From positions 1 through 64,000 of the IMG/VR virus record IMGVR_UViG_3300025010_000048: a DNA stretch of 64,000 nucleotides. The stretch is one strand, 5' to 3'. How positions within the stretch are numbered: position 1 is the first letter of the stretch; every line of letters starts with the position of its first letter. The notes below the pieces were generated by a model. It worked only from the letters and a program-made list of their open reading frames with translations. It searched no databases and was not told the DNA's origin. This document shows positions 11,874 through 54,257 of the stretch, in pieces. Source of the DNA: a virus. Both the position numbers and the translations under genes were made by a program.

Positions 11874-13874
11874 CTATACATCTTGTTGTATTAATAATTG
11901 CAGTTCTGACATCATTTGTTCTGGCGGTAGGGACATTAGGTATTCCCTAATCTCCGGAGGCAATTGAGATAAAATTTGTTCTATCTCGTTACCTTGTTGT
12001 GAAACTTCTTCCTGCTCAGGAGGTTGTTCTCCAGGAACAGAACTTCTTTTCATTGCTTCCTGCTCCATTTCCATCCGTTGCTGTTCTTCCTTCTGCTTAT
12101 TCATTCTCTCCATAATTTCGGGTATGGGAGGGAACTTGCCGTATTCCATAACATAGAAGAAAGTTTCCGGATCAATGACACTTGCTACCAATAAATCCTT
12201 AGCTATTTCCATATGATACATGCGGTCACTCGGTATTACCGATGAAACTTTACAGTAACAATCAAAGTCAGGGAAGTATTCCTCAAAATCCTTTTGGTAG
12301 GTATTGGCATCTAACATCCTGCCGTCCGGCATTATTGTTTCTCCGGTATTTAACTTTCCTACCTCATTAAAAGGCATGGTTATGCCGTTTTCTTTGTCGT
12401 AAACCTTTTTCATTTCATCAGCATTGAAGGTGTTATACTTATAACCTTCTTTGTCGTTCTTGCCATTAATCCGGTAAGTTCTTTGCTCTGTGTAAAACTT
12501 GCCGATTAGGCGGTTAGTAAATTGACCGGCATCCTCATAGGAAGAATTAATTTCCTGCTCTGCTGTCCTTAACCTTATCTTAGCTTGGGAAACTAGCTCG
12601 GCAATTGCCTTAAATGCGGTTACGCTGCCGGGAGTTCTGCCTTGACTTACATCAAAACGACCTATCATGCCCTCCATAGAGGACTGTAAACGCCCCATTT
12701 CCTGTATTAGACTGCCGGGAATAGGTTGTCCATGCTCTCGCTTAACCCCTTGAATATCGGCAACCGGGAACCACATGCCGGGGGCAGTACCACGTTCCTC
12801 AATTAACCTCTTTTGTCTAGGAGTAAGCGACCTTTCATCATACCAGGTTTGCCCAATGGCCCCGTGAATATGACCTTCAAGTATAATCTCAGCAGTCTTA
12901 TTCCTAACAATTTGCGGATTCTTAAGATAGAACGCATCGCCAAATCCCCAAACGCTATTTTCTCTTGGGTATCTCTGCCGCACAAAAAACGGAAATACCG
13001 GAGTTTCTCCGGGGTCGAAGTACATATAGTTACTGTGTCTAAGATAAACTCCTTGATGTTCTCCTGCCCATAAAATAACGTGTAAACCTATTCCCTGGTC
13101 TTGTTCTCCTGGTGCTAAAATCATCGGTTTGCCAATATACCATGTTTCAATAACGGGAACCTGTTCTTGGTTATATGAGCGACTAAAACCTTCGGTATCA
13201 AGTTGGTCAGTATCCAGCAAATCATCGTCGTGCAACCCTTGTTCTTGAACCAACTTTGCCCTATCGGGGAAGTTCTCTTGTATATACTCCATTGTGCGCC
13301 ATACGGGTTTATGGCAACGATTTCCCTCATTTATATCCTCCCGACAACGTGCATCAGGCACTAGGCATAACGGGTGCAATGCTTTCCAGCGAATATCGCC
13401 TTCCCATCTGTTCGGACCTTTGCCACCTCGCCAATTAGAGTCCCAATAGATATGCCAAATACCTGTGCCGTACAGAAAAAACCACCGAAGAAACTTAATT
13501 CTCTCGGAGGTTAGTTTGTTCTTATAGAATAAGAATTTTTTAAGGTCGGTCATAATATTAGATTTTTCTTCGTCACCCGGTTCAACGCCCTGGTCTATTA
13601 ACTCTATCTCGTTAGCAAACTCGGCTACCGTACCTTCTATTAGAGAAAAGGTAATATTCTCAACGCTGTTCGGTCTATTCTGTTGCTGTGCCTCGGTTCT
13701 TAGCGGATTACCATTCGGACCAAGTAAGTCCCAATGCCTAGAAGTATAGAGTTTATACATTTCCCGCATTTCATCGACATAAAATTGCCTTGCCGCTTTA
13801 TCATCGTCATACCAATCCATACAAATTCTAACGGCATCACTTTCTGCCTGTGAATTTCCTCTTACGTTTTCCAT
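11874..13874 (-). CDS. portal protein (P22-like podovirus type)
   Basis: 666 aa; YGTGI...W, QGR.PGSVTA..AI..L motifs; Q/E-rich C-terminal barrel. Confidence 0.88.
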   Translation of the reverse strand: MENVRGNSQAESDAVRICMDWYDDDKAARQFYVDEMREMYKLYTSRHWDLLGPNGNPLRTEAQQQNRPNSVENITFSLIEGTVAEFANEIELIDQGVEPGDEEKSNIMTDLKKFLFYKNKLTSERIKFLRWFFLYGTGIWHIYWDSNWRGGKGPNRWEGDIRWKALHPLCLVPDARCREDINEGNRCHKPVWRTMEYIQENFPDRAKLVQEQGLHDDDLLDTDQLDTEGFSRSYNQEQVPVIETWYIGKPMILAPGEQDQGIGLHVILWAGEHQGVYLRHSNYMYFDPGETPVFPFFVRQRYPRENSVWGFGDAFYLKNPQIVRNKTAEIILEGHIHGAIGQTWYDERSLTPRQKRLIEERGTAPGMWFPVADIQGVKREHGQPIPGSLIQEMGRLQSSMEGMIGRFDVSQGRTPGSVTAFKAIAELVSQAKIRLRTAEQEINSSYEDAGQFTNRLIGKFYTEQRTYRINGKNDKEGYKYNTFNADEMKKVYDKENGITMPFNEVGKLNTGETIMPDGRMLDANTYQKDFEEYFPDFDCYCKVSSVIPSDRMYHMEIAKDLLVASVIDPETFFYVMEYGKFPPIPEIMERMNKQKEEQQRMEMEQEAMKRSSVPGEQPPEQEEVSQQGNEIEQILSQLPPEIREYLMSLPPEQMMSELQLLIQQDV

Positions 13875-17209: not shown

Positions 17210-18856
17210 TTACATTCCGTAGAATCCCGGTAATCCTTCTTGTTCCTCATCGTCCTCATCTTCTGCCCATTGTTCCATTGACTGAGCATTCAACCTTCTG
17301 CCCTTATCTTGACCAGGGAGAAAGGGAATGCTGTCGTTATTCTTAAAGGCAGTAGTCATATGAATATGTACTCCGATAGCACACATTATAATTACATCAT
17401 CATGCTGCCCACCCCTTGCCGCTTCTTTTCCGTTTGGGTGTCGGACAAAATTCATCGCTTCATCAACAAAGCGTTTCCAATAACACTCGAATACTCCTTC
17501 ACGCACAACCTTTTTAATGGCATCAACGATTAACGGACGAGTCTTAGGAGTTGTATACCATCCTAGCTTCTGCCTTGTTTGGTCGCTGCGCTTATCGTAA
17601 ACTTGCGTTCTGTATATATCATAGTAAACACGTTTAAGGTGACTGATTGTAGTTAGACCATGATTATTGCCCTCCGGTACTAGCATAGGCAGACCGTAGT
17701 ATACGGCTAGTCTGTGCATATAGTCGGCTAAAACGTCCGGTTCAACGTGTCCATGATAGACAGCATCTAACCTTAATCTATGCCGGTTAACAACGCCCAC
17801 AGCATCGAAGTCGCCATGCTCTAAACCTTCGGCAACGTCAGCAGGTATTAGATATTCCGCGCCCTTCTCAGGATGGAACCATATCTCGTATTCGCCCTTT
17901 TCTTCGGGTTGCCAATAGACTTGTACCTTTGCCGGACTTGTCCATATGAGGTTTCCACGCTCGCCGGGATAGCAGTTCTTCTGCATTTCAGCTATTCTGC
18001 CGATATTAAAAGAACATTTACCGGGCATAATAAAACGCCCATATTTCCGCGCTTCTAACTCCGCCTCATCCATAGACGCTTCAAGGCGTTTCTTTTCATT
18101 TGCTGATAAATAAGGGTTATCGTTCCATTCAACCATTATCAAGAATATTTCATCGTCACGTTTTTCAATAGGTTTCGAGTCATTAAGATAGATGTCGTTA
18201 TATACCCATGTCATACCTTGTAGCGGAGTCATTGTTCCAAATAAATCACCCTCGGTATCCATAAGGCGCATCATTATTTCCGTGTATATATCCTTGGGAC
18301 TTTCTTCGTCAAGCCACGCCCAATGCTGAGATGAACCTTGAAACTTCTCTCTGCCTTGGTCGTAGGACTTAAATCCGATAATCCCACCCCCGACAAGGCG
18401 TATAGTGTCGATAATGCCTGTACTGCGGTAGGTTATCTTTTTAATCTCCCTTAATGGCAATAATCCAGGTATTCCGGTTTCAACATCACCCAATATTTTC
18501 TTTTGAGTAACGTCCCTTTGTACCTCGAAGGATACTGAACATACCCAACCACGGGTAGGTTTTCCGCCAAAACGAGTTATCAGAGGTTCGTACTTCTCTC
18601 TTAAATCATCCGGCCAATCTATAAGATAAGGGCGTATTCTCTCACCTAATGCAAGGAATACTGCCCTAATTGCGCCAGATTCCGTTTTTCCTGTACGATT
18701 CCCACCCAGTATCCAGCTATTCCTTTTATTGGATAATAGAAACTTTTCTTGCTTATCGTAGGGCCGGATAAAACGAATATGTTCTTCTTTTTGCCGCCGT
18801 TCTAGTTCATTAATAAACCGTAACGCTTCTTTTTCCTTTGCTGTTAGTTTTGCCAT
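17210..18856 (-). CDS. terL: terminase large subunit
   Basis: Walker A GGNRTGKT, Walker B WLDEE, TMTP coupling motif, nuclease ADVAEG...HDD. Confidence 0.95.
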   Translation of the reverse strand: MAKLTAKEKEALRFINELERRQKEEHIRFIRPYDKQEKFLLSNKRNSWILGGNRTGKTESGAIRAVFLALGERIRPYLIDWPDDLREKYEPLITRFGGKPTRGWVCSVSFEVQRDVTQKKILGDVETGIPGLLPLREIKKITYRSTGIIDTIRLVGGGIIGFKSYDQGREKFQGSSQHWAWLDEESPKDIYTEIMMRLMDTEGDLFGTMTPLQGMTWVYNDIYLNDSKPIEKRDDEIFLIMVEWNDNPYLSANEKKRLEASMDEAELEARKYGRFIMPGKCSFNIGRIAEMQKNCYPGERGNLIWTSPAKVQVYWQPEEKGEYEIWFHPEKGAEYLIPADVAEGLEHGDFDAVGVVNRHRLRLDAVYHGHVEPDVLADYMHRLAVYYGLPMLVPEGNNHGLTTISHLKRVYYDIYRTQVYDKRSDQTRQKLGWYTTPKTRPLIVDAIKKVVREGVFECYWKRFVDEAMNFVRHPNGKEAARGGQHDDVIIMCAIGVHIHMTTAFKNNDSIPFLPGQDKGRRLNAQSMEQWAEDEDDEEQEGLPGFYGM

Positions 18857-21448: not shown

Positions 21449-21841
21449 TTATTCTCCTAATACTTCCTTGGCTTTTCGGGCTAATTCTGCAGAAGTGAGT
21501 TCCAACTCCACAGGGCCGCCGTCTTTGCCGGTCAGCTGAAGTTGTTGTGTATCGCTCCAGCCGTGGTTTTTCATCCAAAAAATAGCTCCGGCAGGATTCT
21601 TGCCGGAAAACAAGCTAGACTCCACAAAACGCTCTACTTTTGCCTTTGCCTTTTTAAGAACGTGTGAAAACTCTTCTACTTCGGACCAATCAATCAGTCC
21701 TCGTCTATCCGTCCCAATCGCCAAAGCTAATCCTGTAATTGTTAAAGGTTCGCCCTTTTCTTCACACTCAGCAAAATAAGCATCTATTAAAGGTTGCATT
21801 TCTTCGCCGCTCTTATATTTTCTCGGTCTACCTCCTGGCAT
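21449..21841 (-). CDS. terS: terminase small subunit (DNA-packaging gp3-like)
   Basis: GRPRKY...YF..C......TITGLALA.G...GAIF.MKN.GW.D...TGKDGGP. Confidence 0.9.
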   Translation of the reverse strand: MPGGRPRKYKSGEEMQPLIDAYFAECEEKGEPLTITGLALAIGTDRRGLIDWSEVEEFSHVLKKAKAKVERFVESSLFSGKNPAGAIFWMKNHGWSDTQQLQLTGKDGGPVELELTSAELARKAKEVLGE

Positions 21842-27837: not shown

Positions 27838-27864
27838 AGCCGCCTCCGGGCGGTTTATTTTTTT
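27838..27864 (+). terminator. intrinsic terminator ending the early operon
   Basis: AGCCGCC-TCCG-GGCGGTT followed by a T-rich run. Confidence 0.8.
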
Positions 27865-27877
27865 CCCAAAATTACCT

Positions 27878-27908
27878 GCAATATGGACAAACCGCCTCCG
27901 CATAAACT
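27878..27908 (+). promoter_or_regulatory. putative sigmaE (mother-cell sporulation) promoter of the FtsK operon
   Basis: ATA-17 nt-CATAaacT; no sigmaA consensus nearby. Confidence 0.45.
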
Positions 27909-27939
27909 AAACGAACAACACAACGAACGGAGGTACGCC

Positions 27940-29329
27940 GTCAACTACTCCCACCTACGCTTCGCTTAGAGGTGTGAGCTTGTAACTACCCGGAAGTGCA
28001 AACGAGATAATCTCTCCTTCCTTAGAATGGTGTTACATTAGGGCAGGTTGACATCTACCCACTTATAAAGGTTATACCCCTATAAGTACTTCAACGATGT
28101 ACTCTATTCCTTTTCGTTGAAGATTCATTGCTCCTATACGGTCATCATTTGATTTGTATCCACAGTTACGACAGCAAAAGATGTGAGCTTTCTTATTGCG
28201 ATTACTTCTCTCTGTATGTCCACACTTGGGGCAAGTTTGAGAAGTGTACTTAGGATTAACAGCTATTACTTTTGAATTATTTAGTAATACCTTATATTCT
28301 AACATTTGTCGTAGCTGATAAAATGACCAGGAGACTGTCTCGTATCTATCTTTAACTCTAACACGTTCTGTAGCATTACGAATACCGGCAAGGTCTTCTA
28401 TTGCAAAAAGAGTATTAGCCCCATATTGATTAACGAGTGCCTTTGATACTTGATGGTTTACATCATGCATCCAACGGTTTTCTCGTTGACCAATTCTCTT
28501 CAATCTTCTGCGAGAAGAAGCTGTACCTTTTTGTTGTAGTTGTTTACGCAAGTATTTGTAATAAGAACGTTTGGCTTTAATTTTTCTACCATTAAAGAAT
28601 ATTGACTTACCTTTTGAATCATAGGTTACTGCAATAAAGTTAATACCTAAATCAACGCCAACAATACTATTGATATCATAATCTGATACCATATCAATCT
28701 CTTTAGACATTGGTATGTGTAAGAAGAACTTACCGTATTTATGCACTAACTTTGCTGTACCAAAAGTCCATGAGTTGTCAAAGTATCTTTCCATACCTTT
28801 AATATCAAATGGTACTTTAATGCGTCCATCTAATGTATTAATAGAGAATATGCCTTTCGTAAGTAGATAATCTCTATTCCATACTAAATCATATTCTGGT
28901 TTTTTAAACTGTATTTTAGTCCAATCGTGCTTATTGCTTTTAAGAGTCTTGTATCTTGCTATTACAGTTTTCATAACCGACTGGGACATTTGAGAACGCA
29001 AAGAGAAGTTGCTACGCAAATCATTGTAGGCTATTTTTTGTAACTTTGATTGAGATAACTCTTTTGTATTAAAGATTATATCAGACACAAAGTTACATCC
29101 TTTACGATAGGCATTAAGAGTTCCCTGGAGTAATATGATTTGTGCTGATGTTGGATTGATTTTGATTTTAGCAGTAACAGTTAATTGCATAGTATACACC
29201 AACTTTCACTAACTATAGAAAGTATATCATATTAGTGAAAACATGTGCAACAAGAATATTAAAGAAGAAAGGAGGGAAGGCGCATTCCTCCCCGACTTTA
29301 GAAGATCGGGGTATCCTGCGCCGACCTAG
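27940..29329 (-). mobile_element. IS200/IS605-family, TnpB-only (IS1341-type) element
   Basis: Left-end hairpin 29279-29322; right end finishing GGGAGTAGTTGAC; TTCAT abuts the left end; removal restores GGAGGTACGCC-ATG. Confidence 0.85.
28072..29202 (-). CDS. tnpB: TnpB RNA-guided nuclease
   Basis: RuvC GVDLG, IEDL, DRIGAMNL; zinc finger CPKC...CRNC; catalytic residues present. Confidence 0.95.
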   Translation of the reverse strand: MVYTMQLTVTAKIKINPTSAQIILLQGTLNAYRKGCNFVSDIIFNTKELSQSKLQKIAYNDLRSNFSLRSQMSQSVMKTVIARYKTLKSNKHDWTKIQFKKPEYDLVWNRDYLLTKGIFSINTLDGRIKVPFDIKGMERYFDNSWTFGTAKLVHKYGKFFLHIPMSKEIDMVSDYDINSIVGVDLGINFIAVTYDSKGKSIFFNGRKIKAKRSYYKYLRKQLQQKGTASSRRRLKRIGQRENRWMHDVNHQVSKALVNQYGANTLFAIEDLAGIRNATERVRVKDRYETVSWSFYQLRQMLEYKVLLNNSKVIAVNPKYTSQTCPKCGHTERSNRNKKAHIFCCRNCGYKSNDDRIGAMNLQRKGIEYIVEVLIGV

Positions 29330-30460
29330 ATGAAGAAACAAAAAACCAACATGTTAGGCGAAGCACTGGAGGGCATAAAAACAGCATGGAGGCACCGCAA
29401 AGGCTACGAAATACCTGCCGCAATACTAGACACCCTAGACGCTCTTTACCCCCTCGATAAACCCAGACCATTACCGATCCGTAAAGGAATTCAGTGCACA
29501 GAAACCGGCTGGCACATGATATTTACACTTAGACCAGGCACATCATTTAACACCCTAAAAAATCAGCAGGAATATTTTGAGGATGCTACCGGGCTAAATG
29601 TGGAAATGAGCAAAAAAGCAAACTTTCTACACATCAACATAAACACTAACGAGATACCGAAAAAGCTACCGTACAGCTGGAATTATAGCGGCAATATAGA
29701 CCTACCAATACCTGTCGGACTTAGTAAGCAAGGATTGGAAGTGCTACCGCTTGAAGAATCTCCGCATTTACTTATTGCCGGTGTTCCTGGGTACGGAAAA
29801 TCCAACTTTTTACATGTCCTTATTACTTCCCTGCTACCAGTAGCAAGAATCAGCATTATAGACTTAAAGCGGTTGGAGTTTGCCTACTTAAAAGATTATG
29901 CGGCACTAGCTAGGACGGAGGAAGAATCTCTGTTATTAATGCAGTCAATAGAAAAGGGCATGGAACAACGTATCAGAACACTAGAGAGGGCAAAAGTAGT
30001 CAAAATTCAAGACTACAACAAGAGGGCGAAGGAACCATTGCCTTTTATCGTTGTTGTGATTGATGAATTAGCGGAAATTAGCTGTACTAAAACAATTAGA
30101 CTTATCGACAGAATAACCAGACTTGCCAGGGCGGTTGGAATTTCAGTAGTTGCGGCAACACAAAGACCGTCAACGAAGGTTCTCCCGGGAGATACCCGGG
30201 CAATGTTTCAAGCGCGACTATGCTTCCAAGTTGCCGATGAACTCAATAGTCGTATGGTGCTAGGTGAAACCTGTTCCCTTGCCGCATATCTACCAGGTAT
30301 AAAAGGCAGGGCAATTTATAAATTCGGCATGGATACCCAGGAAGTCCAGACTATGCACCTTCCGGTCAGTCAGGCCAAAAAATTGTTAAAGGGGGTGAGT
30401 ATGGATGCTTTTACCGAGTGGACCAATATCACACCGAGCGCGCGGCTATTACCGCGATAA
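29330..30460 (+). CDS. FtsK/SpoIIIE-family ATPase
   Basis: PHLLIAGVPGYGKS, IIDLK, VVIDELAE, RLARAVGI, ATQRP. Confidence 0.92.
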   Translation: MKKQKTNMLGEALEGIKTAWRHRKGYEIPAAILDTLDALYPLDKPRPLPIRKGIQCTETGWHMIFTLRPGTSFNTLKNQQEYFEDATGLNVEMSKKANFLHININTNEIPKKLPYSWNYSGNIDLPIPVGLSKQGLEVLPLEESPHLLIAGVPGYGKSNFLHVLITSLLPVARISIIDLKRLEFAYLKDYAALARTEEESLLLMQSIEKGMEQRIRTLERAKVVKIQDYNKRAKEPLPFIVVVIDELAEISCTKTIRLIDRITRLARAVGISVVAATQRPSTKVLPGDTRAMFQARLCFQVADELNSRMVLGETCSLAAYLPGIKGRAIYKFGMDTQEVQTMHLPVSQAKKLLKGVSMDAFTEWTNITPSARLLPR

Positions 30461-31079
30461 CGAAATTGTATGGCGAGTAAGTAGTCACCGATGCCTAAAC
30501 ACAGAGCAAATACAGATATTACTATTTCCTATGACCGCATCAGGTAAGCGGAAATGTCAACAGCGACTAAAGATATTAGTCGGTCCCAAACAAAAACGCC
30601 TACAGCGTTGGAGATATGACTTAGAACAACCTTATGCTTACTACCGGGAGCGACTAGAGCAGATGCAACATACCGTATTATTAAATTGGGCGGTTATCTG
30701 GATAGAACGAAACTTAAAGTCATGGGAGGAAATTCACTCCGTTAGCTATAATCAAGGCATGGGAGTATTAATTTCCGATTGCTTTATTGCCATAAAAAAC
30801 ACTATCACAGGCCAATTCAGATTTTTATTCATCGAAATGGACATTCATCACCCGGCAAACGAATTCGACAAGGTACGGAAGTACAACAAACTATTCGAGA
30901 AACTGCCGGAACAATGGTGGGTTAAACAAACCAAGAGATTCCCTAGGACCCTGCTAGTCACCGACAACGAGCGCAAGTTAAAGAAAATTAACGAGTTGAT
31001 TGAGTCTGAAAACCGTAACGGGTTAGAATTTAAAAGTTATCTTGTTAGTAATATCAGAAAACAAACTATAGGAGGTTAA
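30405..31079 (+). CDS. replication-relaxation (Replic_Relax)-family protein
   Basis: RD..I.......L..EQI HTH, H, D, IEMD...K..KY PD-(D/E)XK-like motifs; overlaps the FtsK gene. Confidence 0.75.
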   Translation: MLLPSGPISHRARGYYRDNEIVWRVSSHRCLNTEQIQILLFPMTASGKRKCQQRLKILVGPKQKRLQRWRYDLEQPYAYYRERLEQMQHTVLLNWAVIWIERNLKSWEEIHSVSYNQGMGVLISDCFIAIKNTITGQFRFLFIEMDIHHPANEFDKVRKYNKLFEKLPEQWWVKQTKRFPRTLLVTDNERKLKKINELIESENRNGLEFKSYLVSNIRKQTIGG

Positions 31080-31082
31080 ATC

Positions 31083-31544
31083 GTGTTAATACAGGTTCCA
31101 GCGGCAACAAAAATAGTTGGATTAATCATGGCGGGTATTATGATGATGTCAGGCTTAAATAATATTAGTGACAACAATAAGTCTGTAGTTTATAAAAATG
31201 ACGGATATTATGAAATTATAGACGAAACCAGCAAAAGTACGATCTATACCTATGTAGACATACAGGAAAATCCAAGCGAGCATACTATGGATTGGCTTGA
31301 TGGAGTTGTGGTATTCAGAAAAGACGGAGAAGTATTGAACTGGGAAGAGTCAGGAATGGGAAGGCATACAGAAGATTCTATTCCTATGTATGAATTATAT
31401 GAGAGTTTAGATGAAGAAGAAAAAGCTATTTTTGATCGTCGCATGGACAGTATGAATACAGTAGAAAAATACAAAAGTTTTCTAAAAGACATTAAAAAGC
31501 AGGCAACAAAAACCAAGATAAATGAAAGATGGTTTAATAAATAA
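31083..31544 (+). CDS. membrane-anchored/secreted protein
   Basis: N-terminal hydrophobic helix followed by a soluble domain. Confidence 0.55.
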   Translation: MLIQVPAATKIVGLIMAGIMMMSGLNNISDNNKSVVYKNDGYYEIIDETSKSTIYTYVDIQENPSEHTMDWLDGVVVFRKDGEVLNWEESGMGRHTEDSIPMYELYESLDEEEKAIFDRRMDSMNTVEKYKSFLKDIKKQATKTKINERWFNK

Positions 31545-31561
31545 GAATGTGAGGTGTTAGG

Positions 31562-31861
31562 ATGCAAATAATTTTAGCGGCAATAATTGGGTTACTCTTA
31601 TCACCGACAGTGTCATTTGCTTTATCGGAAGGACTTCGAAACACACTTTCCAATACTTTCGGTTGGGGCGGCATAGGCAACAAAATAGTAATTCTCATGG
31701 TTCTAGCTGTCGGCAGTTGGGTTGCCGAAATGGTTGCAAATGCCTGCGGAAAAGGTAATATAGCCACAATAATAAAAGTAGCGACTATTTTTACAGCAAT
31801 AATTTTAGTCATTGGGGTAGCTTTAGATTTACTAGATCATATATCAAATATTTTTATTTAA
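31562..31861 (+). CDS. SpoIIIAC/AD-like membrane protein
   Basis: Hydrophobic helices joined by ACGKGNIATII, as in the SpoIIIAC/AD helical hairpin. Confidence 0.5.
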   Translation: MQIILAAIIGLLLSPTVSFALSEGLRNTLSNTFGWGGIGNKIVILMVLAVGSWVAEMVANACGKGNIATIIKVATIFTAIILVIGVALDLLDHISNIFI

Positions 31862-31874
31862 AGAAGGTGTTTAG

Positions 31875-32084
31875 ATGGTCAGTAAAATAATATTTACTAT
31901 AGTAGTTTATTGCTTACCAGAATTGCTTGCATTATCCCTACTTGGGTTAATAAGTTATGTTGTTTGTGTTGTCACCGATAGAAAAAGTATAGGTTTAATG
32001 GCTATTTTACTTACTATTTTTTGTGGCATAGACATAGCATTGACTAAGATTAGCGGATTAATTAGTAAGTTAATTGATTTCTAA
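31875..32084 (+). CDS. small membrane protein
   Basis: Two hydrophobic segments. Confidence 0.55.
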   Translation: MVSKIIFTIVVYCLPELLALSLLGLISYVVCVVTDRKSIGLMAILLTIFCGIDIALTKISGLISKLIDF

Positions 32085-32375
32085 GTTAGTTGGTCAGTCA
32101 ACCTATTATTCAACTTGTCCGAATCCGAATTGCCGTATAATCCGTACTCCTTCCTCCGTCCGTCTTATATAGATTTTTGATTGTTTGTCCATTGCCTTGA
32201 TTTTATTGACGTTTCGGAATGATATTGTTCTTTTAAAGTCTCAGGGTGCGATCAATGGTACGATCTAAAAAACGAACAGGGCAGCGAATGGATTTTATGA
32301 CCCGAAAGGGTTATTTTTTATTGTATTTTTCGTATGAATATGTTAAAATATAAATATTAACACAAGGAGGGCATT

Positions 32376-32519
32376 ATGAACAAAGACACTGTAGTTATCC
32401 GCGTGACTCCTGAGTACAAGAGGAAACTTCTTATCTTGGCTGCGGAGAAACGGAAAAGCCAGAAAGAGTTGGTGCTTAAAGCTATGGAGAAAACTTATGG
32501 AATTAAGGAGGAAAACTAA
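32376..32519 (+). CDS. ribbon-helix-helix-like regulator (47 aa)
   Basis: TVVIRVTPEYKRKL...A......KELV..A; AGGAGG RBS. Confidence 0.6.
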   Translation: MNKDTVVIRVTPEYKRKLLILAAEKRKSQKELVLKAMEKTYGIKEEN

Positions 32520-35500
32520 TGAACACCATAGACGCATATGTTAAAAAAGTTGTCGGCAAGCGTGATGTAGATGCTAACAAAGAGTGGAATTTAAACAAAA
32601 ACGACGCTCTTTATGGCAGACAATATACAGTAGTTACTGTTGAATATGTTGATATGGGCGGTGCCGGTACTACTTATTTATGGTTTAAGAAAGGCGAGGA
32701 ACCGGAGATTGAATCGAGGTATACGTTTCAACATTAGGAAGGAGGAAAACAATTGTTAAGTCTAAAACTAGCTAAACAATTAAAGGATGCAGGTCTGAAA
32801 TGGTTGCCCGAAGATGGTGACTTTTTTTCAACCGGAATAGATCAGGAATGGGATAATATCTTTGTTGTATCAGGTAGTCATAACTTAGTTCCTGAATTGG
32901 GCGGCAAGAGGTGGTTTTTTAATGGACATCTTTGTAACCGTGACGGAGGTTGTATTGCCAACTCCACCGCTTCAATGTGTATGAATATGAAGGGGATACA
33001 GTCAGATCGTTTTGAGGACGGAATAATAAATTCCGTAGAAAGATTTGTATTTGTACCGAGACTAGACCAGTTAATTTCTGAGATTGTAAAACGTGGCTAC
33101 AGGTGGTTCCCTGACATGAATTGTCTTGAGGAATCAGCAGGTAAAACTTTACTGTGGATTATTGGGAAGAAGGAAAACTAATGCGTCAAATTAAATTCAG
33201 AGGCAGAAGGGTAGATAGCGGCGAGTTTGTTTATGGTAGTTTAATATTAGCACCAAATGGTTCATATAATACTGCTTTTATTGCCATAGATGAATATACT
33301 GACAACGATTATACCTTATGTGGCAATGATGGTGAAGTTAGAATATTTTCTAAAATTTATCCCGTTATCCCTGAAACAGTAGGTCAATTCACCGGCCTTC
33401 GCGACAGCAAGAGAACCACCGAGTTTCCCGAAGGGCAGGAAATCTATGATAAAGATTTAATTTCCGATGGTTACAATAATATCGGCATAGTCGAATGGTT
33501 AGACGGAGATAACCCAGGATTTTACCTACACTGGACTAACGTAGAAACTGGCTGTTTTGACGGCATTGGGGAGTGGGGTACTGTGGTTGGCAATAAGTTT
33601 CAGCATCCCGAACTATTGGCAGGTGAAAACAATTGAAATTAGAATTAACCTTATTCGAAAAATATTACATAAAAGAATTTAAGGAGGACGATAAGGAAAA
33701 TTTTCAAGGTTGGCGTTTCATCTACTTTATTAGTAAACCATTTCGATTTAGGTGGTTTACTGATTGCGGAGATTGGTTCTTATATATTCATTGCGGTAAA
33801 AGGTATTGGCGGTTTAGTAGCGCAGGATATGTAAGCAGTAAGGAGGAAAACCAATGAAGTGGATTTTACTTCTCGCTATAACCGCTATTGTTTTCGCTGC
33901 CGGGATTGTGGTTGGTTTGAGGCGCGTTAGGAAGGGTAGGAAATAGGTGAGTAAATTTATATACGATATGATCTGTATGACTGAGGGAGAAAAACTTATT
34001 CACTATTGGTGGTTATGGCTAGGAATAATTATTGTAAGTTTCGGTAGTATTTTATGGAAAGTTATCAGAGATAAGGCAGGTGAGTAAAATAAGAAAAGAC
34101 TACTGCATGGACTGTGGCATAGAACTTATAGGAGACCAAGGACAGTACGCCCAATGTAAAACTTGTTATGATGCCATGATTTACTCGATAGAATCTAAGC
34201 GCGAGGAAATGGCGGCATTAGAGGCAAGCATGGAACGCAGAATGAGACTTAATGAGATACTGACTAATGTTTTTGCTATTTTCGTAACTATCGTTCTGGC
34301 GATTATATTTGCAATTGTATTAAATATACTGCCGGATAATAATATAGCTTTAGCTTTTAGTGGAGTTTTCATTATCTTGCTAATATATATAATGTTTTGG
34401 TTGGAGAGGTGTTGATAGTATGGAGGTTGGGCAGAAGGTTTATCTTGATGGAAATGGAACAGTTGTCGGAATACTGGAATATGAGATTAAAAGTATTGGT
34501 AGGAAATATTTTTATATTTGGCGTGAAGAAAATGAGCGCACAATAAAGAAATACAACATAGAAGGTCTTAGGGAAATTAATGACTTTAGATCTTCTGACA
34601 TATATTTTGATAGACAAAAGTTATCTGATAGTATTGAATACCGTACACTAAAAGATAAATTAGGGAGAGCATTTAATTGGAGGAATATAAGTAACCTATC
34701 TCTCCAACAACTTCGGCAGATCAATGCTATTATTGAGGGGTGATTAACATGCTATACGCCGACTGGTTAAAGTCGCTTAAACCGGGGGATAAGGTTTGCT
34801 ATATAAGGCGCAGGGACACAGTGTACACTATAGACTTTGTTAAAAAGGTGACTCCTTCTGGGATTGTGCGCCTAGAGAGTGGGTTATCGACAGATAAGGA
34901 AGGTTGCTATAAATCTTCTAATATGGGTTGCTCATTTAAAATACGTCAAATTACTCAGAAAATTTTAGATGAAATAGATCGTCATAAGGCAATAAATAGG
35001 TTAAAGGGATTCAACCTATATTCTCTCAGCAAAGAGCAACTAGAGAGGATAATGGATATTATTGAGGGAATGGAGTGATGGACTACGAAAAACTACTAAA
35101 CGAATGGGGAGAAAAGGTTAATGATTCTATTAACAGGGGCGGATTAACAGAGAAATATATATATGGAAAGGATATAGAAATATTATGAATACAAAGACGC
35201 ATTATGAGGATGGATATGAATGTTTAAATGAATTATGTGAATGTGGTGGTACTATAAGATATACTTCTTGGAATAAGAATAGTGTACTTGGAGCAATAGT
35301 ACTGTTTAGACAATGTTTTTGTTTGCAATGTGGTAAAGAAATGAAAAAATTACGTGAAACTAAAATACATACAATAGATAGTAAATATGGTATATAAAGT
35401 AATGTTATATTAACTCATTGGTTAGACAGTGAAGGTAAGTAGCTAAAGGGATTATTATTAAGGGGGTGGAGTGATGAAAACTTCGGAAGTAGTACCGTCT

Positions 35501-38044: not shown

Positions 38045-38425
38045 TTACAGATTTCTCGCTTTTGTAATAGTATTGAGCAGTTCGGCCACAATCTCAGGTG
38101 GTATACGTTCCTCGTATGCTTTCTTGGCTAACATCATCCAAGGTAAGGATGCTTCATCTAACAGCATTTGCCGCAATTCTTCTGTCATGGCATCGTTAAC
38201 CTCTTTTACGTCAAAGTATGTTCTGATTGATTCCTTGTGGAAATACAAAGGACTTATGTTTAATGCTTTAGCTAACTTTTCAATAGTTTCAATACCGGGA
38301 TTTTTACGCTCACCCCTTTCAATTTGACCAATGGTATTTAGGGCCACTTTAGCTATTTCAGCTAATTTTTCCATCGAGTACCCACGCCTCATTCTTAGAT
38401 TGTGCAACTTATCCTTCAATTCCAT
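38045..38425 (-). CDS. XRE-family prophage repressor (cI-like)
   Basis: LR..RGYS..KLA.......I..IE.G...NP....I.KLA.AL. Confidence 0.88.
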   Translation of the reverse strand: MELKDKLHNLRMRRGYSMEKLAEIAKVALNTIGQIERGERKNPGIETIEKLAKALNISPLYFHKESIRTYFDVKEVNDAMTEELRQMLLDEASLPWMMLAKKAYEERIPPEIVAELLNTITKARNL

Positions 38426-38512
38426 CTCATTTCCCCCATTCCCTTATCTAGTATGCCAGTATATATTTTATTTCAATTATCCACAATTAAGTATATAAAC
38501 TACCCAAAACGG

Positions 38513-38541
38513 TTGACATTATACCTTTCAAGGTATATACT
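38513..38541 (+). promoter_or_regulatory. rightward lytic promoter
   Basis: TTGACA-17-TATACT; TACCTT/AAGGTA palindrome in the spacer; perfect DnaA box at 38477-38485. Confidence 0.8.
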
Positions 38542-38620
38542 TACTCTATTGGACGAGCAATATTTTTTATCCACCTCCTACCTTTAAGAGTAGGATTTAA
38601 CCGAAAAGGAGGTTTAACCC

Positions 38621-38860
38621 TTGAATCTAAAGTTGGTCGGGCAGAACATTTGCCGACTGAGAAAACAACAGGGTATTTTACAACAGACACTATCTGAGCT
38701 AACCGGGTTAACTCAATCTAATATATCAAATATCGAAAACGGTAATACGGGTGACATTTACCTGGGAACCTTAGTAAAAATTGCCGTTGCCCTTAATTGC
38801 AGAGTATCGGATTTGACTTGGGAATCTAGTCATCAATCAAATGTGCCAGAAACAGTATAA
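38621..38860 (+). CDS. Cro-like XRE HTH protein
   Basis: HTH_3 pattern, divergent from cI. Confidence 0.85.
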   Translation: MNLKLVGQNICRLRKQQGILQQTLSELTGLTQSNISNIENGNTGDIYLGTLVKIAVALNCRVSDLTWESSHQSNVPETV

Positions 38861-39397: not shown

Positions 39398-39447
39398 AAA
39401 ACTAAAGACCATACACAAACCAAATATCAAAAAGGGAGGAAGATAGC

Positions 39448-39495
39448 ATGGTAGTACGGAGCACATATATTACAATAACTAAATTGAGAGGTTGA
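39448..39495 (+). CDS. 15-aa minigene MVVRSTYITITKLRG
   Basis: GGGAGG RBS; its 3' end carries the RBS of the Com-like gene. Confidence 0.5.
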   Translation: MVVRSTYITITKLRG

Positions 39496-39500
39496 CGCCT

Positions 39501-39671
39501 ATGCGACATAAGGAAGCACGTTGCAGTAAATGTAAGAAACTTCTTGGGCGGTACAGCATAGCGCAGGACTTAGAGATTCAATGTCCTCGCTGCAAGACTT
39601 TAAATATAATTAACGATTATCTACAACTAAATAATTTAAACCCAGAGAGCCTTAGAGTCCCAGCGGTTTAA
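39501..39671 (+). CDS. Mu Com-like zinc-ribbon regulator (56 aa)
   Basis: RCSKCKKLL...EIQCPRCKTLN. Confidence 0.85.
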   Translation: MRHKEARCSKCKKLLGRYSIAQDLEIQCPRCKTLNIINDYLQLNNLNPESLRVPAV

Positions 39672-39691
39672 TATTTCGAGAGAACCTAGAG

Positions 39692-39731
39692 TTCCAGTGA
39701 AGTATTAATACTACTGGGATTCTTTTTGTTT
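39692..39731 (+). terminator. terminator/attenuator after the Com-like gene
   Basis: TTCCAGT.AAGTAT/ATACT.ACTGGGA stem followed by TTCTTTTT. Confidence 0.7.
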
Positions 39732-39742
39732 ATTTTTAGGAG

Positions 39743-39988
39743 GTGAAAAAAATTAGCGGCTCTATAAGAAAAATAGACTCAACAGGTCGTGTCGTTATGC
39801 CGGTTGATTTTAGAGAGCAACTTGGTTGGAAACTTGGCGACGAGGTTGAAATTAACATACTGGGTAACGAAATATTAGTCAAGGCATATCGGCCAGGGTG
39901 TTACATGTGCGGTTCACAGACCGACTTAAGGCCGTACAGGGGATTTCAGATGTGCCAGAATTGCCGGGGTGAGATAGGGGCATTGTAG
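39743..39988 (+). CDS. AbrB/MazE-family regulator with C-terminal zinc ribbon
   Basis: RKID..GRVV.P...R..L....GD.VEI; CxxC...CxxC. Confidence 0.88.
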   Translation: MKKISGSIRKIDSTGRVVMPVDFREQLGWKLGDEVEINILGNEILVKAYRPGCYMCGSQTDLRPYRGFQMCQNCRGEIGAL

Positions 39989-42125: not shown

Positions 42126-43142
42126 ATGGCAATTAAGGGCATATCAGAACGCCGCCGCCTTCCCCGACAGGGCAAAATTAAAATAGGCGAAAAGGTACAG
42201 AAGGAAAACCGGAACGGCAAAATGGTCGAGTATCCGGTAGCACTTGACCATTTCAAAGTACCCGAAGAAGTGGCAAAAATTTATGGACAAGACCCAAAGG
42301 AAATAGACATTATTTTCCCGGTTAACGACTTAGAGCAGATTTTCCCTCAATACATGAAAAAGTACGGCAAGGTCGGACTACATTGTAAGGGTGACGGAGA
42401 AACCGGAACGGCAATGATTGACGGCGAAATGGTGGAACGAGCTTGTGACCCTGACGATCCTTGGTGTAAAGGTTGCCAACCAAAGGGAACGCTTAGCTAT
42501 ATCGTGCCGAAGGTAAGCAGCATGAGGGTATATCAGACTACTACGGGCGGTTGGAATAGCATCGTAAATATCAATAGTAGTCTTGATATGATTCGCGGCA
42601 TGACAGGCGGTAAAATCGCTTTTATCCCGCTAAAACTAAAAATTGAACCGCACGAGGGAACCATTATTACCGATGGCAAACAGTTTAAGAAAACCGTCTT
42701 TGTCTTGCAGGTAGATATTGAAGGGACTATGACAGACTTTATTGCCAGGCATCAGCGCAAAGCGTTACCGCCATCCGAACAGTTTTTACAGATTCAAGCG
42801 GCAGGGCAAGAATTTATGGACCTGCTTGATAGGGCAAAAGAGCAACAAGTCAGAGAAGAACAGACAGAATTAATAGAGCATGAGGATAATGACTCAGAGG
42901 AGCAGTTAGAGAATATTCATCCTATCTATGCTGCCGGACTAAATAAAGGATTGACTAACGAAGAAATTACCGTTTTGATTTGGGTTGCCTCTAAGGGTAC
43001 GACAAACTCCACAGAGAAGGCAAACGACAAGGCGGTTGATATGATAGTTAAGTCTATTAATGACAATAGTCTAGAGGGACTGCAGGGCATTGTGGCGGAA
43101 CGTCAGGCAGGTTACGACGAGTGGTTATCGTCAGCAAGTTGA
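42126..43142 (+). CDS. Gp3-like/recombination-directionality-factor-like protein (putative recombination/annealing)
   Basis: IKG....RLPR.GKIKIGEK...P..LDHF...C.GDGE...C...C...T..WNS. Confidence 0.7.
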   Translation: MAIKGISERRRLPRQGKIKIGEKVQKENRNGKMVEYPVALDHFKVPEEVAKIYGQDPKEIDIIFPVNDLEQIFPQYMKKYGKVGLHCKGDGETGTAMIDGEMVERACDPDDPWCKGCQPKGTLSYIVPKVSSMRVYQTTTGGWNSIVNINSSLDMIRGMTGGKIAFIPLKLKIEPHEGTIITDGKQFKKTVFVLQVDIEGTMTDFIARHQRKALPPSEQFLQIQAAGQEFMDLLDRAKEQQVREEQTELIEHEDNDSEEQLENIHPIYAAGLNKGLTNEEITVLIWVASKGTTNSTEKANDKAVDMIVKSINDNSLEGLQGIVAERQAGYDEWLSSAS

Positions 43143-46551: not shown

Positions 46552-47127
46552 ATGGTATTTAAGAGCATAAATAACCATGATTTAATAAAAGAAATTACCG
46601 ACAAACCAAGGTCTTTATTTTTCAATAATTTTTTAATGCAATATCAAAGTGATATAGAATCGTTTGTACCGTACAGAAATGGTGGATATATTTTTAGTCA
46701 TAGCGAAATTAAAACCATAATTGCCGGACTGAGAAATTTCTTAGAGCAAGTTTCTGATGAAGAAATTAAATCTCATAACTTAGAAATAAGTAACCCCACA
46801 AGAGACAATAGTAAACCTAAGTCTATAAAGAAAAGCACAAAACCGGGATATATTTATTTCATTGCTTCCGGAAATGGTATGTATAAAATAGGGCGAACAA
46901 AGAACCTTGAAAACCGTTTAGCCGATTACAGGAGATTGCCTATTGAGACTGAAATACTACATTCAATTAGAGTAATAAATATGGAAAAGGCAGAAAAATT
47001 TTTCTTAAATATGTTTGCAGAGTATAACATAAAGGGCGAATGGTTTAGGTTGGACAATAATAGAGATTTGCAAAGAATTATTAATGGAGAATACCCTCCA
47101 GAAATTATTAAATTATTGGAGGCATAA
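46552..47127 (+). CDS. GIY-YIG (T5orf172-type) nuclease-domain protein
   Basis: GYIYFI.....YKIGRT....RL...E...F......GEWF. Confidence 0.85.
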   Translation: MVFKSINNHDLIKEITDKPRSLFFNNFLMQYQSDIESFVPYRNGGYIFSHSEIKTIIAGLRNFLEQVSDEEIKSHNLEISNPTRDNSKPKSIKKSTKPGYIYFIASGNGMYKIGRTKNLENRLADYRRLPIETEILHSIRVINMEKAEKFFLNMFAEYNIKGEWFRLDNNRDLQRIINGEYPPEIIKLLEA

Positions 47128-47128
47128 A

Positions 47129-47911
47129 ATGTCTGATCGCATAATCAAAATCCATAAGCGAGAAAACCCTTATGTGCAGATTGATAAGAGTATTCTGAAT
47201 AACGAAAAGTTATCATGGAGGGCAAAGGGGTTACTTGTATACCTGCTTAGTTTGCCTAATGATTGGAAGGTTTATCTTGACGAAGTAACTAAACATTCAA
47301 CAGATAAGATAACATCTACAAGATCAGCTTTTTCCGAATTAAAAGATGCAGGTTACGTTAAAAAAGTTTCCACGAGAGATGATAAGGGACACATAACCGG
47401 ATGGGAAACCATTGTGTATGAAACCCCCAACATAGAAACAGAAAGTCCAGATAGTGGGGAGTCCACATTGTCTGAAAATCCAGATGTGGGGAAACCACAT
47501 TGTGGGGAAACCGACACTACTAATAATAATTATACTAATAATGAAAAACCTAATAACATTAAAACCATTGCTGATAAAAAATCATCATCAGCACACAAAC
47601 AGGTTATTGACCATTATCACAATAAGTTTATTTCTGTTTTTGGTAAAAAACCGTTTATTGATGGTGGCAAGGATGGGAATTTAGTTAAGAATTTGCTAGG
47701 CAACTGTTCATTAGAAGAACTGCTTGACCTACTAGATAAGTTTTTCGATTCAAATGACCCATATGTTATTAACTCAGGTTATACTTTGGGAGTTTTTAAA
47801 ACACAGATCAATAAACTTAAAACGGTAGGGGTTGAGCGAAATAAGGATCAACAACTCACCACCGAAGAAAAAGCAAAAAGAGATTTATACAGTAAACTCT
47901 ATGCTAACTAG
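47129..47911 (+). CDS. replication initiator (wHTH) with internal iteron-like repeats
   Basis: N..LSW.AKGLL.YLLS.P.DW; GTGGGGA(A/G) repeats at about 47450-47520 followed by an AT-rich tract. Confidence 0.85.
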   Translation: MSDRIIKIHKRENPYVQIDKSILNNEKLSWRAKGLLVYLLSLPNDWKVYLDEVTKHSTDKITSTRSAFSELKDAGYVKKVSTRDDKGHITGWETIVYETPNIETESPDSGESTLSENPDVGKPHCGETDTTNNNYTNNEKPNNIKTIADKKSSSAHKQVIDHYHNKFISVFGKKPFIDGGKDGNLVKNLLGNCSLEELLDLLDKFFDSNDPYVINSGYTLGVFKTQINKLKTVGVERNKDQQLTTEEKAKRDLYSKLYAN

Positions 47912-47922
47912 GTGATTAATAT

Positions 47923-48618
47923 ATGTGCGAAATTTGCGGAGATAGGGGCATAGTCCAGATAGAAGGTACTACCTTCAAAGTTTGCGACTGCATGATAAAG
48001 CGAAAAATAATCAACAAATTCAAAGACAGCAAACTAAGCAAGCAAATGTTGTCAAGTAGATTCGATAACTTTAATTATGACTACTACAAAGATAACCTTG
48101 CCGAAATTAAGAAAGCAGTAAAATTAGCACAAGACTTCTCCGATGCGGTTGTAAATGGACAGGCAGCAGATGGATTAATACTGACCGGCAGGGCAGGACA
48201 CGGCAAAACATACTTAGCCTGCTGTATAGCAAACGTACTTATTCGCAAGAACATAGCAACACTATTTACCGTAGTACCGGACCTGTTAGACCAAATTAAG
48301 AGTACATACAACAAAGGCGAGGGCCAGGACTACAGCGAGAAAGACTTATTAGATACTGCCAGAGAAGTACAAGTATTAATTCTTGATGACTTGGGGGCGC
48401 ATCAGTATACCGAGTGGGCCCAAGGAAAGTTATTCACTATCTTAAATCACAGAATAAACTTTAACCTGCCGACGGTCATAACAACTAACCTTAGTTTAGA
48501 GGAAATGGACAAGTTTATCGGGGAACGCGCTGCAAGTAGAATTATTCAACTCTGTCAACCGATTAAGGTTGAAGCTGATATGGATATTAGGATGCAGAAA
48601 AGATTATCTAAGGCATAA
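47923..48618 (+). CDS. DnaC/IstB-like helicase loader ATPase
   Basis: CxxC...CxC, GRAGHGKT, LILDDLG, TTNL. Confidence 0.92.
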   Translation: MCEICGDRGIVQIEGTTFKVCDCMIKRKIINKFKDSKLSKQMLSSRFDNFNYDYYKDNLAEIKKAVKLAQDFSDAVVNGQAADGLILTGRAGHGKTYLACCIANVLIRKNIATLFTVVPDLLDQIKSTYNKGEGQDYSEKDLLDTAREVQVLILDDLGAHQYTEWAQGKLFTILNHRINFNLPTVITTNLSLEEMDKFIGERAASRIIQLCQPIKVEADMDIRMQKRLSKA

Positions 48619-49165: not shown

Positions 49166-49573
49166 ATGAGCGAATTTATCTGCATGAACTGCGGAAAATG
49201 TTGTGGTCCTGTGCCTGTCTCAAATACGGACTGGGACAAGATAGTAACAGCAGTAGGAAATATGAACTTTGCCAACATTGAACATCTTGTTAAGCAGAAA
49301 AGGGAAAGCATGACCTGTATTTTACGCGACACTTTTTATAATAAATGTGCAATACATGAGCATAGACCGCTAATTTGTCGCTTACAGGGAACTCAGGAAG
49401 GATTGCCTTGCCCGAATATGCCGAGATACGCCAAGGGTGATAATGGCAGGGTTGCCGTGAATCGTGACTTTGGCGAGAATGGCGAGTATTTCAAGGGAAT
49501 TTTGAGTGACAGTATTGGTTGGAAAGAAATTCTGGAAGTTGTTAGGGAGAGGAAGGAGGTAAACAATGCGTAG
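49166..49573 (+). CDS. YkgJ-family cysteine-cluster protein
   Basis: CMNCGKCC...C.......CAIH..RPLICR. Confidence 0.8.
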   Translation: MSEFICMNCGKCCGPVPVSNTDWDKIVTAVGNMNFANIEHLVKQKRESMTCILRDTFYNKCAIHEHRPLICRLQGTQEGLPCPNMPRYAKGDNGRVAVNRDFGENGEYFKGILSDSIGWKEILEVVRERKEVNNA

Positions 49574-49973: not shown

Positions 49974-50314
49974 GAGGTTATGTATTGCTAGAATTATTTG
50001 ACAAAGCACTACTTTATACAACTGTATGTTTAACCTGCTTGCCGTGGATTGTCGTTATTATAATAGGCATTAGGGGCGGTAAAGTAACTGTTGAGTTTGG
50101 GAGAAATAATAAGGAGGCAACCACAAATGCCAAAACAGAAACGCCACAAACAACCTAAGCTGAAAATCATAGTTGACCTGCCCAATGACGGCAACCGGAA
50201 ATGGTACGACGAGAAGTATCGGAATATGTTCCGGGATCGCAGGGGAGTTTTGCTGCACGACTATAGGGACGGAATGTCGCCGGGGTATTGCGTGGCAGCG
50301 GTGGAGGTATTTAA

Positions 50315-54242: not shown

Positions 54243-54257
54243 TGGGAGGAAAATAAT

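Follow-up and report, generated by a model that had tools for sequence, protein, structure and literature searches.

Bases 1-64000 of the 72,330-bp virus record IMGVR_UViG_3300025010_000048 (rated complete by CheckV; this stretch is referred to here as the window) contain a compact group of plus-strand genes encoding an FtsK/TcpA-type ATPase, a Replic_Relax (PF13814, MOBC-type) protein and small membrane proteins. The group is a known but uncharacterised phage module, present here as a divergent variant. It is read, with a little less than even confidence, as an accessory cassette of conjugative ancestry that processes and translocates DNA, its carrier being a temperate phage that does not integrate and that infects endospore-forming Bacillota. 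By family assignment, the cassette would correspond to a relaxase and coupling-motor set that lacks a channel of its own.

A preliminary description of the window had proposed a minimal nick-and-pump module. The family assignments support that proposal, in that PF13814 is equated with the MOBC relaxases, the predicted fold is that of a nuclease and the closest structural relative of the ATPase is a coupling protein; the nicking and the pumping themselves are predicted from these relationships. In such a mechanism the PF13814 protein would bind and nick a site on the phage DNA, and the translationally coupled FtsK/TcpA-type ATPase would serve as the motor. As the ATPase has no membrane segment, one or two of the small hairpin membrane proteins that accompany it may tether it to the membrane; and as no channel is encoded, export of the DNA would have to proceed via a conduit from the host or from another element. 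Given this mechanism, the forespore (or the sporulation septum) and the conjugative type IV secretion system (T4SS) of a resident element, used in the manner of an integrative and mobilisable element (IME), would be equally probable destinations, each somewhat short of even, and any other destination would be about half as probable as either.

Gene content and protein families

The cassette lies between an intrinsic terminator and a conserved non-coding tail, and its features are as follows.

27838-27865, plus strand: intrinsic terminator ending the upstream early genes (hairpin 27838-27855 with a 7-bp stem, then a T-run)
29330-30460, plus strand: ftsK, FtsK/TcpA-type hexameric-motor ATPase, 376 amino acids (PF01580, 66.7 bits; phrog_1358, 2.8e-65)
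30405-31079, plus strand: Replic_Relax (PF13814, MOBC-type) protein, 224 amino acids (35.6 bits against a cut-off of 25.3)
31083-31544, plus strand: m153, N-terminal membrane anchor and acidic soluble domain (from hydropathy)
31562-31861, plus strand: m99, signal-peptide-like N-terminus and two-helix hairpin with a conserved A-x-GKG loop
31875-32084, plus strand: m69, 69-amino-acid two-helix hairpin with an amphipathic tail
32136-32319, plus strand: conserved non-coding operon tail with a terminator-like hairpin at 32297-32314

The terminator, the FtsK/SpoIIIE-family ATPase and the overlapping Replic_Relax-type protein (the two genes share 56 nt) had all been named in the preliminary description, as had the lack of VirB4 and other conjugation machinery; consistent with the latter, no T4SS family was detected in Pfam scans of 13, 74 and 17 open reading frames (ORFs). 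An Rfam scan of the cassette matched no family. Both boundaries are shared with L004, a relative free of the insertion sequence (IS) described below: the same terminator hairpin lies upstream of its ftsK, and its positions 8079-8259 are 86% identical to the operon tail over 188 nt.

The ATPase exceeded the PF01580 cut-off (24 bits), and its Walker A (G156-K157-S158), Walker B (D245-E246) and T277-Q278-R279-P280 residues were invariant in 10 sequences. Its closest solved structure was 6o1w-z, a 'DNA translocase coupling protein' (PDB 6o1w; 2.8e-24 over residues 100-343), and FtsK (2iut) was matched at 6.6e-17 over residues 236-313 only (78 residues). Judging by the molecule name, and by a review that cites the TcpA structure as '6OZ1' (PMC12857230), 6o1w-z is probably TcpA of pCW3. 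The NCBIfam TraB model also matched (8.4e-16), far below its cut-off. No transmembrane (TM) segment was found in the ATPase by hydropathy, the sole segment reaching at least 1.6 being the Walker A strand (159-179), and there was no FtsK_4TM match; the C-terminal gamma domain (PF09397) was likewise not matched, and the control cellular FtsKs in L063 and L065 were recognised by the same model. AlphaFold2 (AF2) modelled the ATPase poorly (pLDDT 52.9, 10-row alignment), and a predicted complex of the ATPase with m99 scored 0.00, a value that counts neither for nor against binding.

PF13814 was carried by all 17 homolog clusters. The AF2 model of the window protein (pLDDT 89.6) comprises an N-terminal winged helix and a C-terminal alpha/beta core, its Foldseek neighbours were all PD-(D/E)XK nucleases (E 2e-3 to 0.1), and D125, E144, D146, K156 and K159 were invariant in 20 sequences. 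The family has been placed in the PD-(D/E)XK superfamily (PMC3424549), and CONJscan equates it with the MOBC relaxase superfamily (PMC5357655). Together, these observations point to a winged helix joined to a PD-(D/E)XK nuclease of the MOBC relaxase family, for which nicking is predicted. Relaxases of this family include TraX of pAD1 and MobC of CloDF13.

Three membrane proteins, one of them SpoIIIAC/AD-like, had been described initially. Three small hydrophobic proteins are indeed encoded, two of which are conserved across relatives: of 10 viral loci, all had m99, 8 had m69 and 1 had m153. The sole homolog of m153 is in L005 (39% identity), and m153, which matched no Pfam or PHROG family, is a variable accessory gene. 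From a profile comparison (hhalign probability 26.6%), m69 may be a paralog of m99. The likeness to SpoIIIAC/AD was not upheld. When 27 SpoIIIAD and 27 SpoIIIAC sequences from the class of a metagenome-assembled genome (MAG) that holds a relative of the cassette were used for comparison, m99 scored 13.6 against SpoIIIAD (reversed control 14.6) and m69 scored 16.5-17.8 against SpoIIIAC (reversed controls 13.0-14.3; probability at most 3.4%), values no better, or barely better, than those of the controls. None of six m99 members matched PF06686 at E<=10, nor was any other Pfam family matched; three m69 members and the L015 protein gave one PF06686 match at that threshold, in L011 (E 0.015; 15.9 bits, below the cut-off of 24). 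In the Atlas, SpoIIIAC clusters did not rise above the level of sub-threshold leads (0.78 by features; TM 0.74, 'under the bar'). The resemblance is that of any small two-helix hairpin.

Several characterised systems resemble the cassette in part. TcpA and relaxase modules of Firmicute integrative and conjugative elements (ICEs) and IMEs are similarly compact and devoid of a T4SS, and have an FtsK-like rather than VirD4-like ATPase encoded just upstream of the relaxase; a coupling-protein gene upstream of the relaxase gene is the typical order in such elements (PMC5357655). MOBC relaxases share with the window protein both PF13814 membership and a restriction-endonuclease-like rather than HUH fold (PMC3424549, PMC5357655). 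The Streptomyces protein TraB is also a lone FtsK-like motor that moves DNA between compartments without a T4SS (PMC12857230). It differs in carrying a membrane domain itself and a C-terminal winged helix-turn-helix that reads DNA, in moving double-stranded DNA without a relaxase, and in its actinomycete origin. In Streptomyces, small hydrophobic proteins (Spd) aid the spread of plasmids across septa. The host SpoIIIE/SpoIIIA-SpoIIQ apparatus likewise contains an FtsK-family motor, and SpoIIIAC is, like m69, a two-helix hairpin (~65 amino acids); however, the window ATPase has neither the 4TM nor the gamma domain of SpoIIIE.

A number of observations weigh against the reading favoured here. 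The ATPase is without the N-terminal membrane domain found in TcpA, TraB, FtsK and SpoIIIE; in TcpA this domain consists of TM helices, which are missing from the solved constructs (PMC12857230). The TcpA proteins of IMEs have RCR-type relaxases as partners, and in the accessible part of a survey of streptococcal IMEs the MOBC relaxases pair with VirD4 and never with TcpA (PMC5357655); the carrier here is, moreover, a phage. The Pfam score of the PF13814 protein is low (35.6 bits), all Foldseek matches of its model are weaker than E 0.001, and neither a nic- or oriT-like (origin of transfer) site nor outstanding inverted or direct repeats were found in 29200-32600. RefSeq and PHROGs call the Bacillus homologs 'replication initiation protein', iteron-like repeats lie upstream of the cassettes of phages BtCS33 and 268TH007, and a literature search found no experiment on the FtsK/PF13814 pair or on any member of it.

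The candidate sporulation promoter and the TnpB element

Four features lie between the terminator and ftsK.

27881-27908, plus strand: candidate mother-cell-type promoter (-35 ATA, 17-nt spacer, -10 CATAAACT)
27929-27933, plus strand: native ftsK Shine-Dalgarno sequence, GGAGG, now 1.39 kb from the ATG
27937-29329, minus strand: solo TnpB (IS200/IS605-type) element, ~1.39 kb, limits approximate to a few bases
28072-29202, minus strand: tnpB, 376 amino acids (OrfB_IS605 and Cas12f-like TNB zinc ribbon; PF07282, 5.9e-22)

Promoters read by sigmaE are described as having ATA at -35 and those read by sigmaK as having AC, with a shared -10 such as CATATTAT or CATATAAT and a spacing of 16-18 nt (PMC3789822). 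The sigmaE pattern drawn from this consensus (-35 ATA and -10 CATAnnnT, 16-18 nt apart) is present upstream of the operon. The minimal form, ATA-N16-18-CATAnnnT, matched at 21 places in the window, where Markov shuffles gave 14.6 +/- 4.1, and at this chance frequency the match at 27881-27908 proves nothing alone. It was, however, the sole match judged to have a terminator before it and a co-oriented operon directly after it. Of 11 distinct upstream regions, which share ancestry, 8 retained both of its blocks, with a variable 9-nt core between them; in L005, an extra 81-amino-acid ORF follows the promoter. The pattern was not found in the three most distant relatives (L015, L058 and L059), and among three Bacillus phage upstream regions it was present only in that of GBSV1.

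Judged by the same consensus (PMC3789822), the site fitted other sigma factors poorly: for sigmaA, TGGACA is a fair -35, yet no -10 lies at 16-18 nt, and for sigmaK the 'AC' is just 12 nt from CATA. A late promoter was also rejected, no similar motif being found ahead of the packaging operon with its DUF1492 regulator. A narrower pattern, ATAT-N16-CATAMAMT (2 sites against 0.06 expected), was discarded as circular because it was derived from the site itself. A GGACAAA box within the spacer is conserved even in L058 and resembles the B. subtilis SpoIIID consensus; this is treated as a lead only. The box fits the C. difficile SpoIIID consensus, given as KRTAACARK in PMC5025042, poorly.

Two side observations concern this kind of non-coding DNA. 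A second intergenic minimal match (ATA-N18-CATAnnnT), at chance level, belongs to the interval 39443-39988 (plus strand), with ORFs for a Com-like zinc ribbon (39492-39671) and for an AbrB/MazE/SpoVT-type protein (39743-39988) starting shortly after it. In several relatives, a structured-looking non-coding element of ~120 nt lies just upstream of the ftsK promoter (L006 5700-5818; L011 898-1099), and it recurs at 85% identity in other non-coding DNA of the window (62533-62649, minus strand; 62377-62406). It matched no Rfam family and looks like a dispersed repeat or a small mobile or RNA element.

The promoter bears on the explanation favoured in the preliminary description, in which sigmaE would fire the operon in the mother cell and the cassette would move the phage genome, maintained as an episome, into the forespore and thereby secure its inheritance by the spore. 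This explanation is considered unlikely, although it accounts for the retention of a mother-cell-type promoter that suits neither sigmaA nor sigmaK. The chance-level frequency of the minimal pattern and its absence from the distant relatives and from two of the three Bacillus phages count against it, as does the insertion that now separates the promoter from the genes.

The sigmaE-type match was said to precede the ATPase gene; the match stands, but a TnpB element that had not been noted intervenes, and the promoter is not directly upstream of ftsK. The tnpB product also matched PF01385 (4.1e-15), phrog_506 (2.2e-51) and Cas12f models (4e-36). Homology with L004 stops at 27936, after the Shine-Dalgarno sequence, and restarts at the ftsK ATG (29330), from which it follows that the ~1.39-kb element occupies the spacer between ribosome-binding site and start codon. 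In the IS-free order, the terminator and T-run are followed by 75 conserved nt that comprise promoter and leader and end in GGAGGT, with the ftsK start 6-8 nt beyond this sequence in L004, L006, L011, L054 and L055. In the window no Shine-Dalgarno sequence now directly precedes the ftsK ATG, and a terminator scan flagged no plus-strand terminator within the element. The element is present in one copy in the 72-kb record, and tnpB was found in none of the 10 viral loci and in none of another 10 loci, several of the second set being on the same contigs as loci of the first. Two contigs of relatives (run X5, from a different study) join 27934/5 to 29387/93, with sides of only 25-36 nt.

The IS-bearing form was found at 100% identity in metagenome contigs of 3 of 4 runs, one of them from a different study, which indicates that this genotype is viable and abundant with the cassette uncoupled. 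As the element separates the promoter and ribosome-binding site from ftsK, the cassette is probably poorly expressed, and dispensable for propagation, in the IS-bearing genome. The abundance of a genotype cut off from promoter and Shine-Dalgarno sequence is a further point against forespore delivery.

Relatives and possible roles

The trio of a small membrane protein, a TM-less FtsK and an overlapping PF13814 protein was found in the temperate phages BtCS33, GBSV1, 268TH007 and Fah, in agreement with the earlier remark that FtsK/relaxase pairs occur in other Firmicute phages, here those of Bacillus and Geobacillus. In these phages, including the Fah/gamma-like group, and in the RBClin15 pair, the ATPase is ~380-430 amino acids long and the PF13814 protein ~190-230; the small protein was predicted to span the membrane in BtCS33, GBSV1 and 268TH007, the three covered by the hydropathy analysis. 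The ATPases are only 25-29% identical to that of the window. The membrane gene lies downstream in the window clade, between ftsK and the PF13814 gene in L015, and upstream in BtCS33, GBSV1, 268TH007 and Fah. In Bacillus phages the cassette adjoins helix-turn-helix (HTH) regulators and an integrase, whereas in the window it has no adjacent integrase, HTH regulators or iterons and, in its clade, has a sigmaE-type promoter. The pair in RBClin15 has been noted as an operon of unknown role (PMC11526630), the cassette of 268TH007 accounts for a 2,525-bp indel between this phage and a sibling (PMC9476937), and roles in sporulation or translocation have been guessed (PMC3359378, PMC3853050, PMC4113786). 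No established role is given in these reports (PMC9476937, PMC11526630, PMC3359378, PMC4113786), in keeping with the preliminary statement that no function is established.

A comparable layout was noted in the plasmid-prophage Clostridium phage c-st (L066, 1967-4642), in which a 58-amino-acid ORF, a 621-amino-acid FtsK-like protein and a 205-amino-acid protein follow the order of the Bacillus cassettes; the last matched no Pfam family and may be a diverged PF13814 relative.

The window PF13814 protein had no tblastn match in isolated phages or PLSDB plasmids, and a scan of genome contigs with this single protein returned nothing; an alignment-based scan of the contigs returned 2 Bacillota MAG loci. 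Searches by tblastn with two Bacillus PF13814 proteins returned 26 records each, with FtsK adjacent in all. The hosts were Bacillus (20), Geobacillus (2) and Cytobacillus (1), and three records carried doubtful labels: two of them are of 'Staphylococcus' SpaA1, which is identical to a Bacillus phage, and the third is of 'Stenotrophomonas' TS-12. Confinement to phages of spore-formers, which had been proposed as a check, holds for the isolated-phage pairs found, apart from these three records. FtsK-like genes without regard to PF13814 were found in 407 phage records, including those of Mycobacterium (52), Listeria (10), Staphylococcus (8) and Enterococcus (2), and were common in strictly lytic Bacillus phages too; a PF13814 neighbour was found in 0 of 6 sampled non-Bacillaceae FtsK matches, 3 of which were unverified contigs of host DNA.

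This distribution favours forespore delivery. The explanation is also consistent with the presence of spoIIIAC/AD in the MAG that holds a relative and in 41 of 41 genomes of its class, and with the listing of spoIIIE homologs among the sporulation genes reported to occur preferentially on phages of spore-formers (PMC10294663). Against it, the SpoIIIAC/AD likeness of the membrane proteins is unsupported. Furthermore, proteins made only in the mother cell cannot alone span the forespore membrane, as SpoIIIE and the SpoIIIA-SpoIIQ complex illustrate. Finally, the FtsK ATPase of Fah is reported to be a 'delayed' gene of lytic infection (PMC4113786); for that lineage, this report agrees with one of the outcomes named beforehand as refuting a sporulation role, namely lytic expression.

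The second destination for a cassette of conjugative ancestry is another cell. In this explanation the relaxase and coupling ATPase would deliver the phage genome to a T4SS encoded by an ICE or plasmid resident in the same cell, which would offer a lysis-free route to new hosts; its probability is judged to be low. It draws on the MOBC and TcpA-type family assignments, on the resemblance of the Bacillus phage cassette, beside integrase and HTH genes, to the compact IME layout coupling protein-relaxase-(xis)-int (PMC5357655), and on the lack of T4SS genes in the window phage, as in IMEs. However, FtsK matches are few in phages of ICE-rich non-sporulators (the 10, 8 and 2 of 407 given above for Listeria, Staphylococcus and Enterococcus), and those sampled were host fragments or were without PF13814. 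The ATPase has no TM segment, the pairing of MOBC with TcpA is without precedent in the accessible part of the IME survey (PMC5357655), and a sporulation-type promoter would not be expected for conjugation.

The two destinations may also be combined. The promoter of spoIIIA is driven by sigmaE. A mobilisation module co-expressed with spoIIIA under sigmaE might use the host SpoIIIA-SpoIIQ complex, or the SpoIIIE pore, as its mating pore. In this reading, hairpin proteins mimicking SpoIIIAC/AD-type subunits would dock the TM-less ATPase and the phage DNA bound by the relaxase, which would so enter the forespore; this is regarded as a long shot.

Two further explanations dispense with transfer between compartments. 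In the first, which seems rather improbable, the PF13814 protein would be an initiator that nicks the origin of an episome, and the ATPase a helicase-like motor or a partition or dimer-resolution translocase acting in one cell. This is consistent with the PHROG matches of the PF13814 protein (phrog_9381, 'replication initiation by nicking', 4.4e-7; phrog_2190, 'replication initiation protein', 5.6e-5) and with the best full-length plasmid matches, which are B. cereus-group replicons ('plasmids') of 36-72 kb. It is also favoured by arrays of about ten palindromic 10-mers directly upstream of two cassettes, with repeats of the TACCNNGGTA type at 2290-2450 in BtCS33 (L049) and of the AACGG type at 2480-2620 in 268TH007 (L048). 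These repeats are candidate iterons or candidate binding sites of the winged-helix protein. Near the window cassette, however, there are no iterons, and the record encodes a separate IstB/DnaC-type loader (47923-48618), which adjoins an unannotated ORF (47084-47911) that matched no family. Replication would also leave the conserved membrane proteins unexplained, and sits poorly with a cassette that one of two sibling phages lacks (PMC9476937) and that an IS disrupts in the abundant genotype seen here.

The other explanation, prophage defence or superinfection exclusion, would have a membrane-associated ATPase and a PD-(D/E)XK nuclease sense and cut incoming DNA. The moron-like position of the cassette, behind a terminator and with its own promoter, would suit such a role, and its make-up of a nuclease, an FtsK/HerA-type ATPase and small membrane proteins recalls that of defence systems. 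The ATPase matched the PADLOC models SspH, mad8 and HerA, and the fold matches of the nuclease include HamA, Cap4, Can2 and Shedu. These ATPase matches, however, span the generic P-loop motor only, the PF13814 and membrane proteins matched no PADLOC model, and FtsK-like genes are frequent in strictly lytic Bacillus phages. A defensive role is considered very unlikely.

The phage and the meaning of the cassette

The wider record provides the context for a cassette of this kind. The main features in the window are listed below.

17-22580, minus strand: packaging and head genes
11874-13874, minus strand: P22-type portal
17210-18856, minus strand: TerL
21449-21841, minus strand: TerS
38045-38860, plus strand: CI/Cro-type HTH proteins
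47923-48618, plus strand: IstB/DnaC-type loader gene
52225-52551, plus strand: Spo0A C-domain protein, 108 amino acids (PF08769, 8e-19; TIGR02875 residues 151-258)

The plus-strand early-type genes begin at 23370, and a P22-type antirepressor and an amidase endolysin are encoded outside the window, elsewhere in the record. No tyrosine or serine recombinase was found anywhere in the 72,330 bp, and this absence coexists with the CI/Cro-type regulators, the antirepressor and a Gp3-like 'RDF-like' protein (42126-43142). The lack of a recombinase beside such regulators suggests an episomal or pseudolysogenic lifestyle, and would suit both forespore delivery and episome replication. The Spo0A protein, which also favours forespore delivery, is the C-terminal DNA-binding domain alone, and its gene lies directly after that of a 636-amino-acid C5 cytosine methylase, with stop and start codons overlapping. 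Truncated phage spo0A genes of this kind have been described, and truncated spo0A is listed with spoIIIE among sporulation genes reported to be carried mainly by phages of spore-formers (PMC10294663). On account of the regulators, the missing recombinase and the Spo0A C-domain gene, the phage is probably temperate without integrating, and an endospore-forming member of the Bacillota is almost certainly its host.

Two other regions of the window merit mention. A group I intron (8799-9132, minus strand; Rfam RF00028, 61.8 bits, full model) lies between a 246-amino-acid ORF (9237-9977), which resembles Mu gpT-type major head proteins in their C-terminal part only, and a structural ORF (7571-8560); a head gene may be split by the intron. 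A plus-strand nucleotide-metabolism run (49566-57249) encodes nucleoside 2-deoxyribosyltransferase-like, C5 methylase and PAPS-reductase-like proteins, as well as a thymidylate-synthase-like protein (partial match), dCMP deaminase, MazG and a radical-SAM/4Fe-4S protein, and may be a DNA base-modification cluster.

FtsK/SpoIIIE homologs are routinely annotated in Bacillus phages, and their function has only been guessed. The present analysis adds that the phage ATPase is accompanied by a MOBC-type nuclease and a small membrane protein, that the set is by family a conjugation-type one without a channel, and that one uncultured clade keeps a mother-cell-type promoter ahead of it. A vague annotation is thereby turned into testable alternatives, namely spore entry, conjugative hitch-hiking and episome replication, and the IS insertion, as a natural knock-down allele, could be put to use in studies of population data. 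If mobilisation were correct, this would be a phage that spreads by conjugation. If the phage genome instead entered the spore, non-integrating phages would have a new route of persistence through dormancy; and if it did so through the sporulation channel, spores would be vehicles for such a phage and the A-Q channel would have a nucleic-acid cargo.

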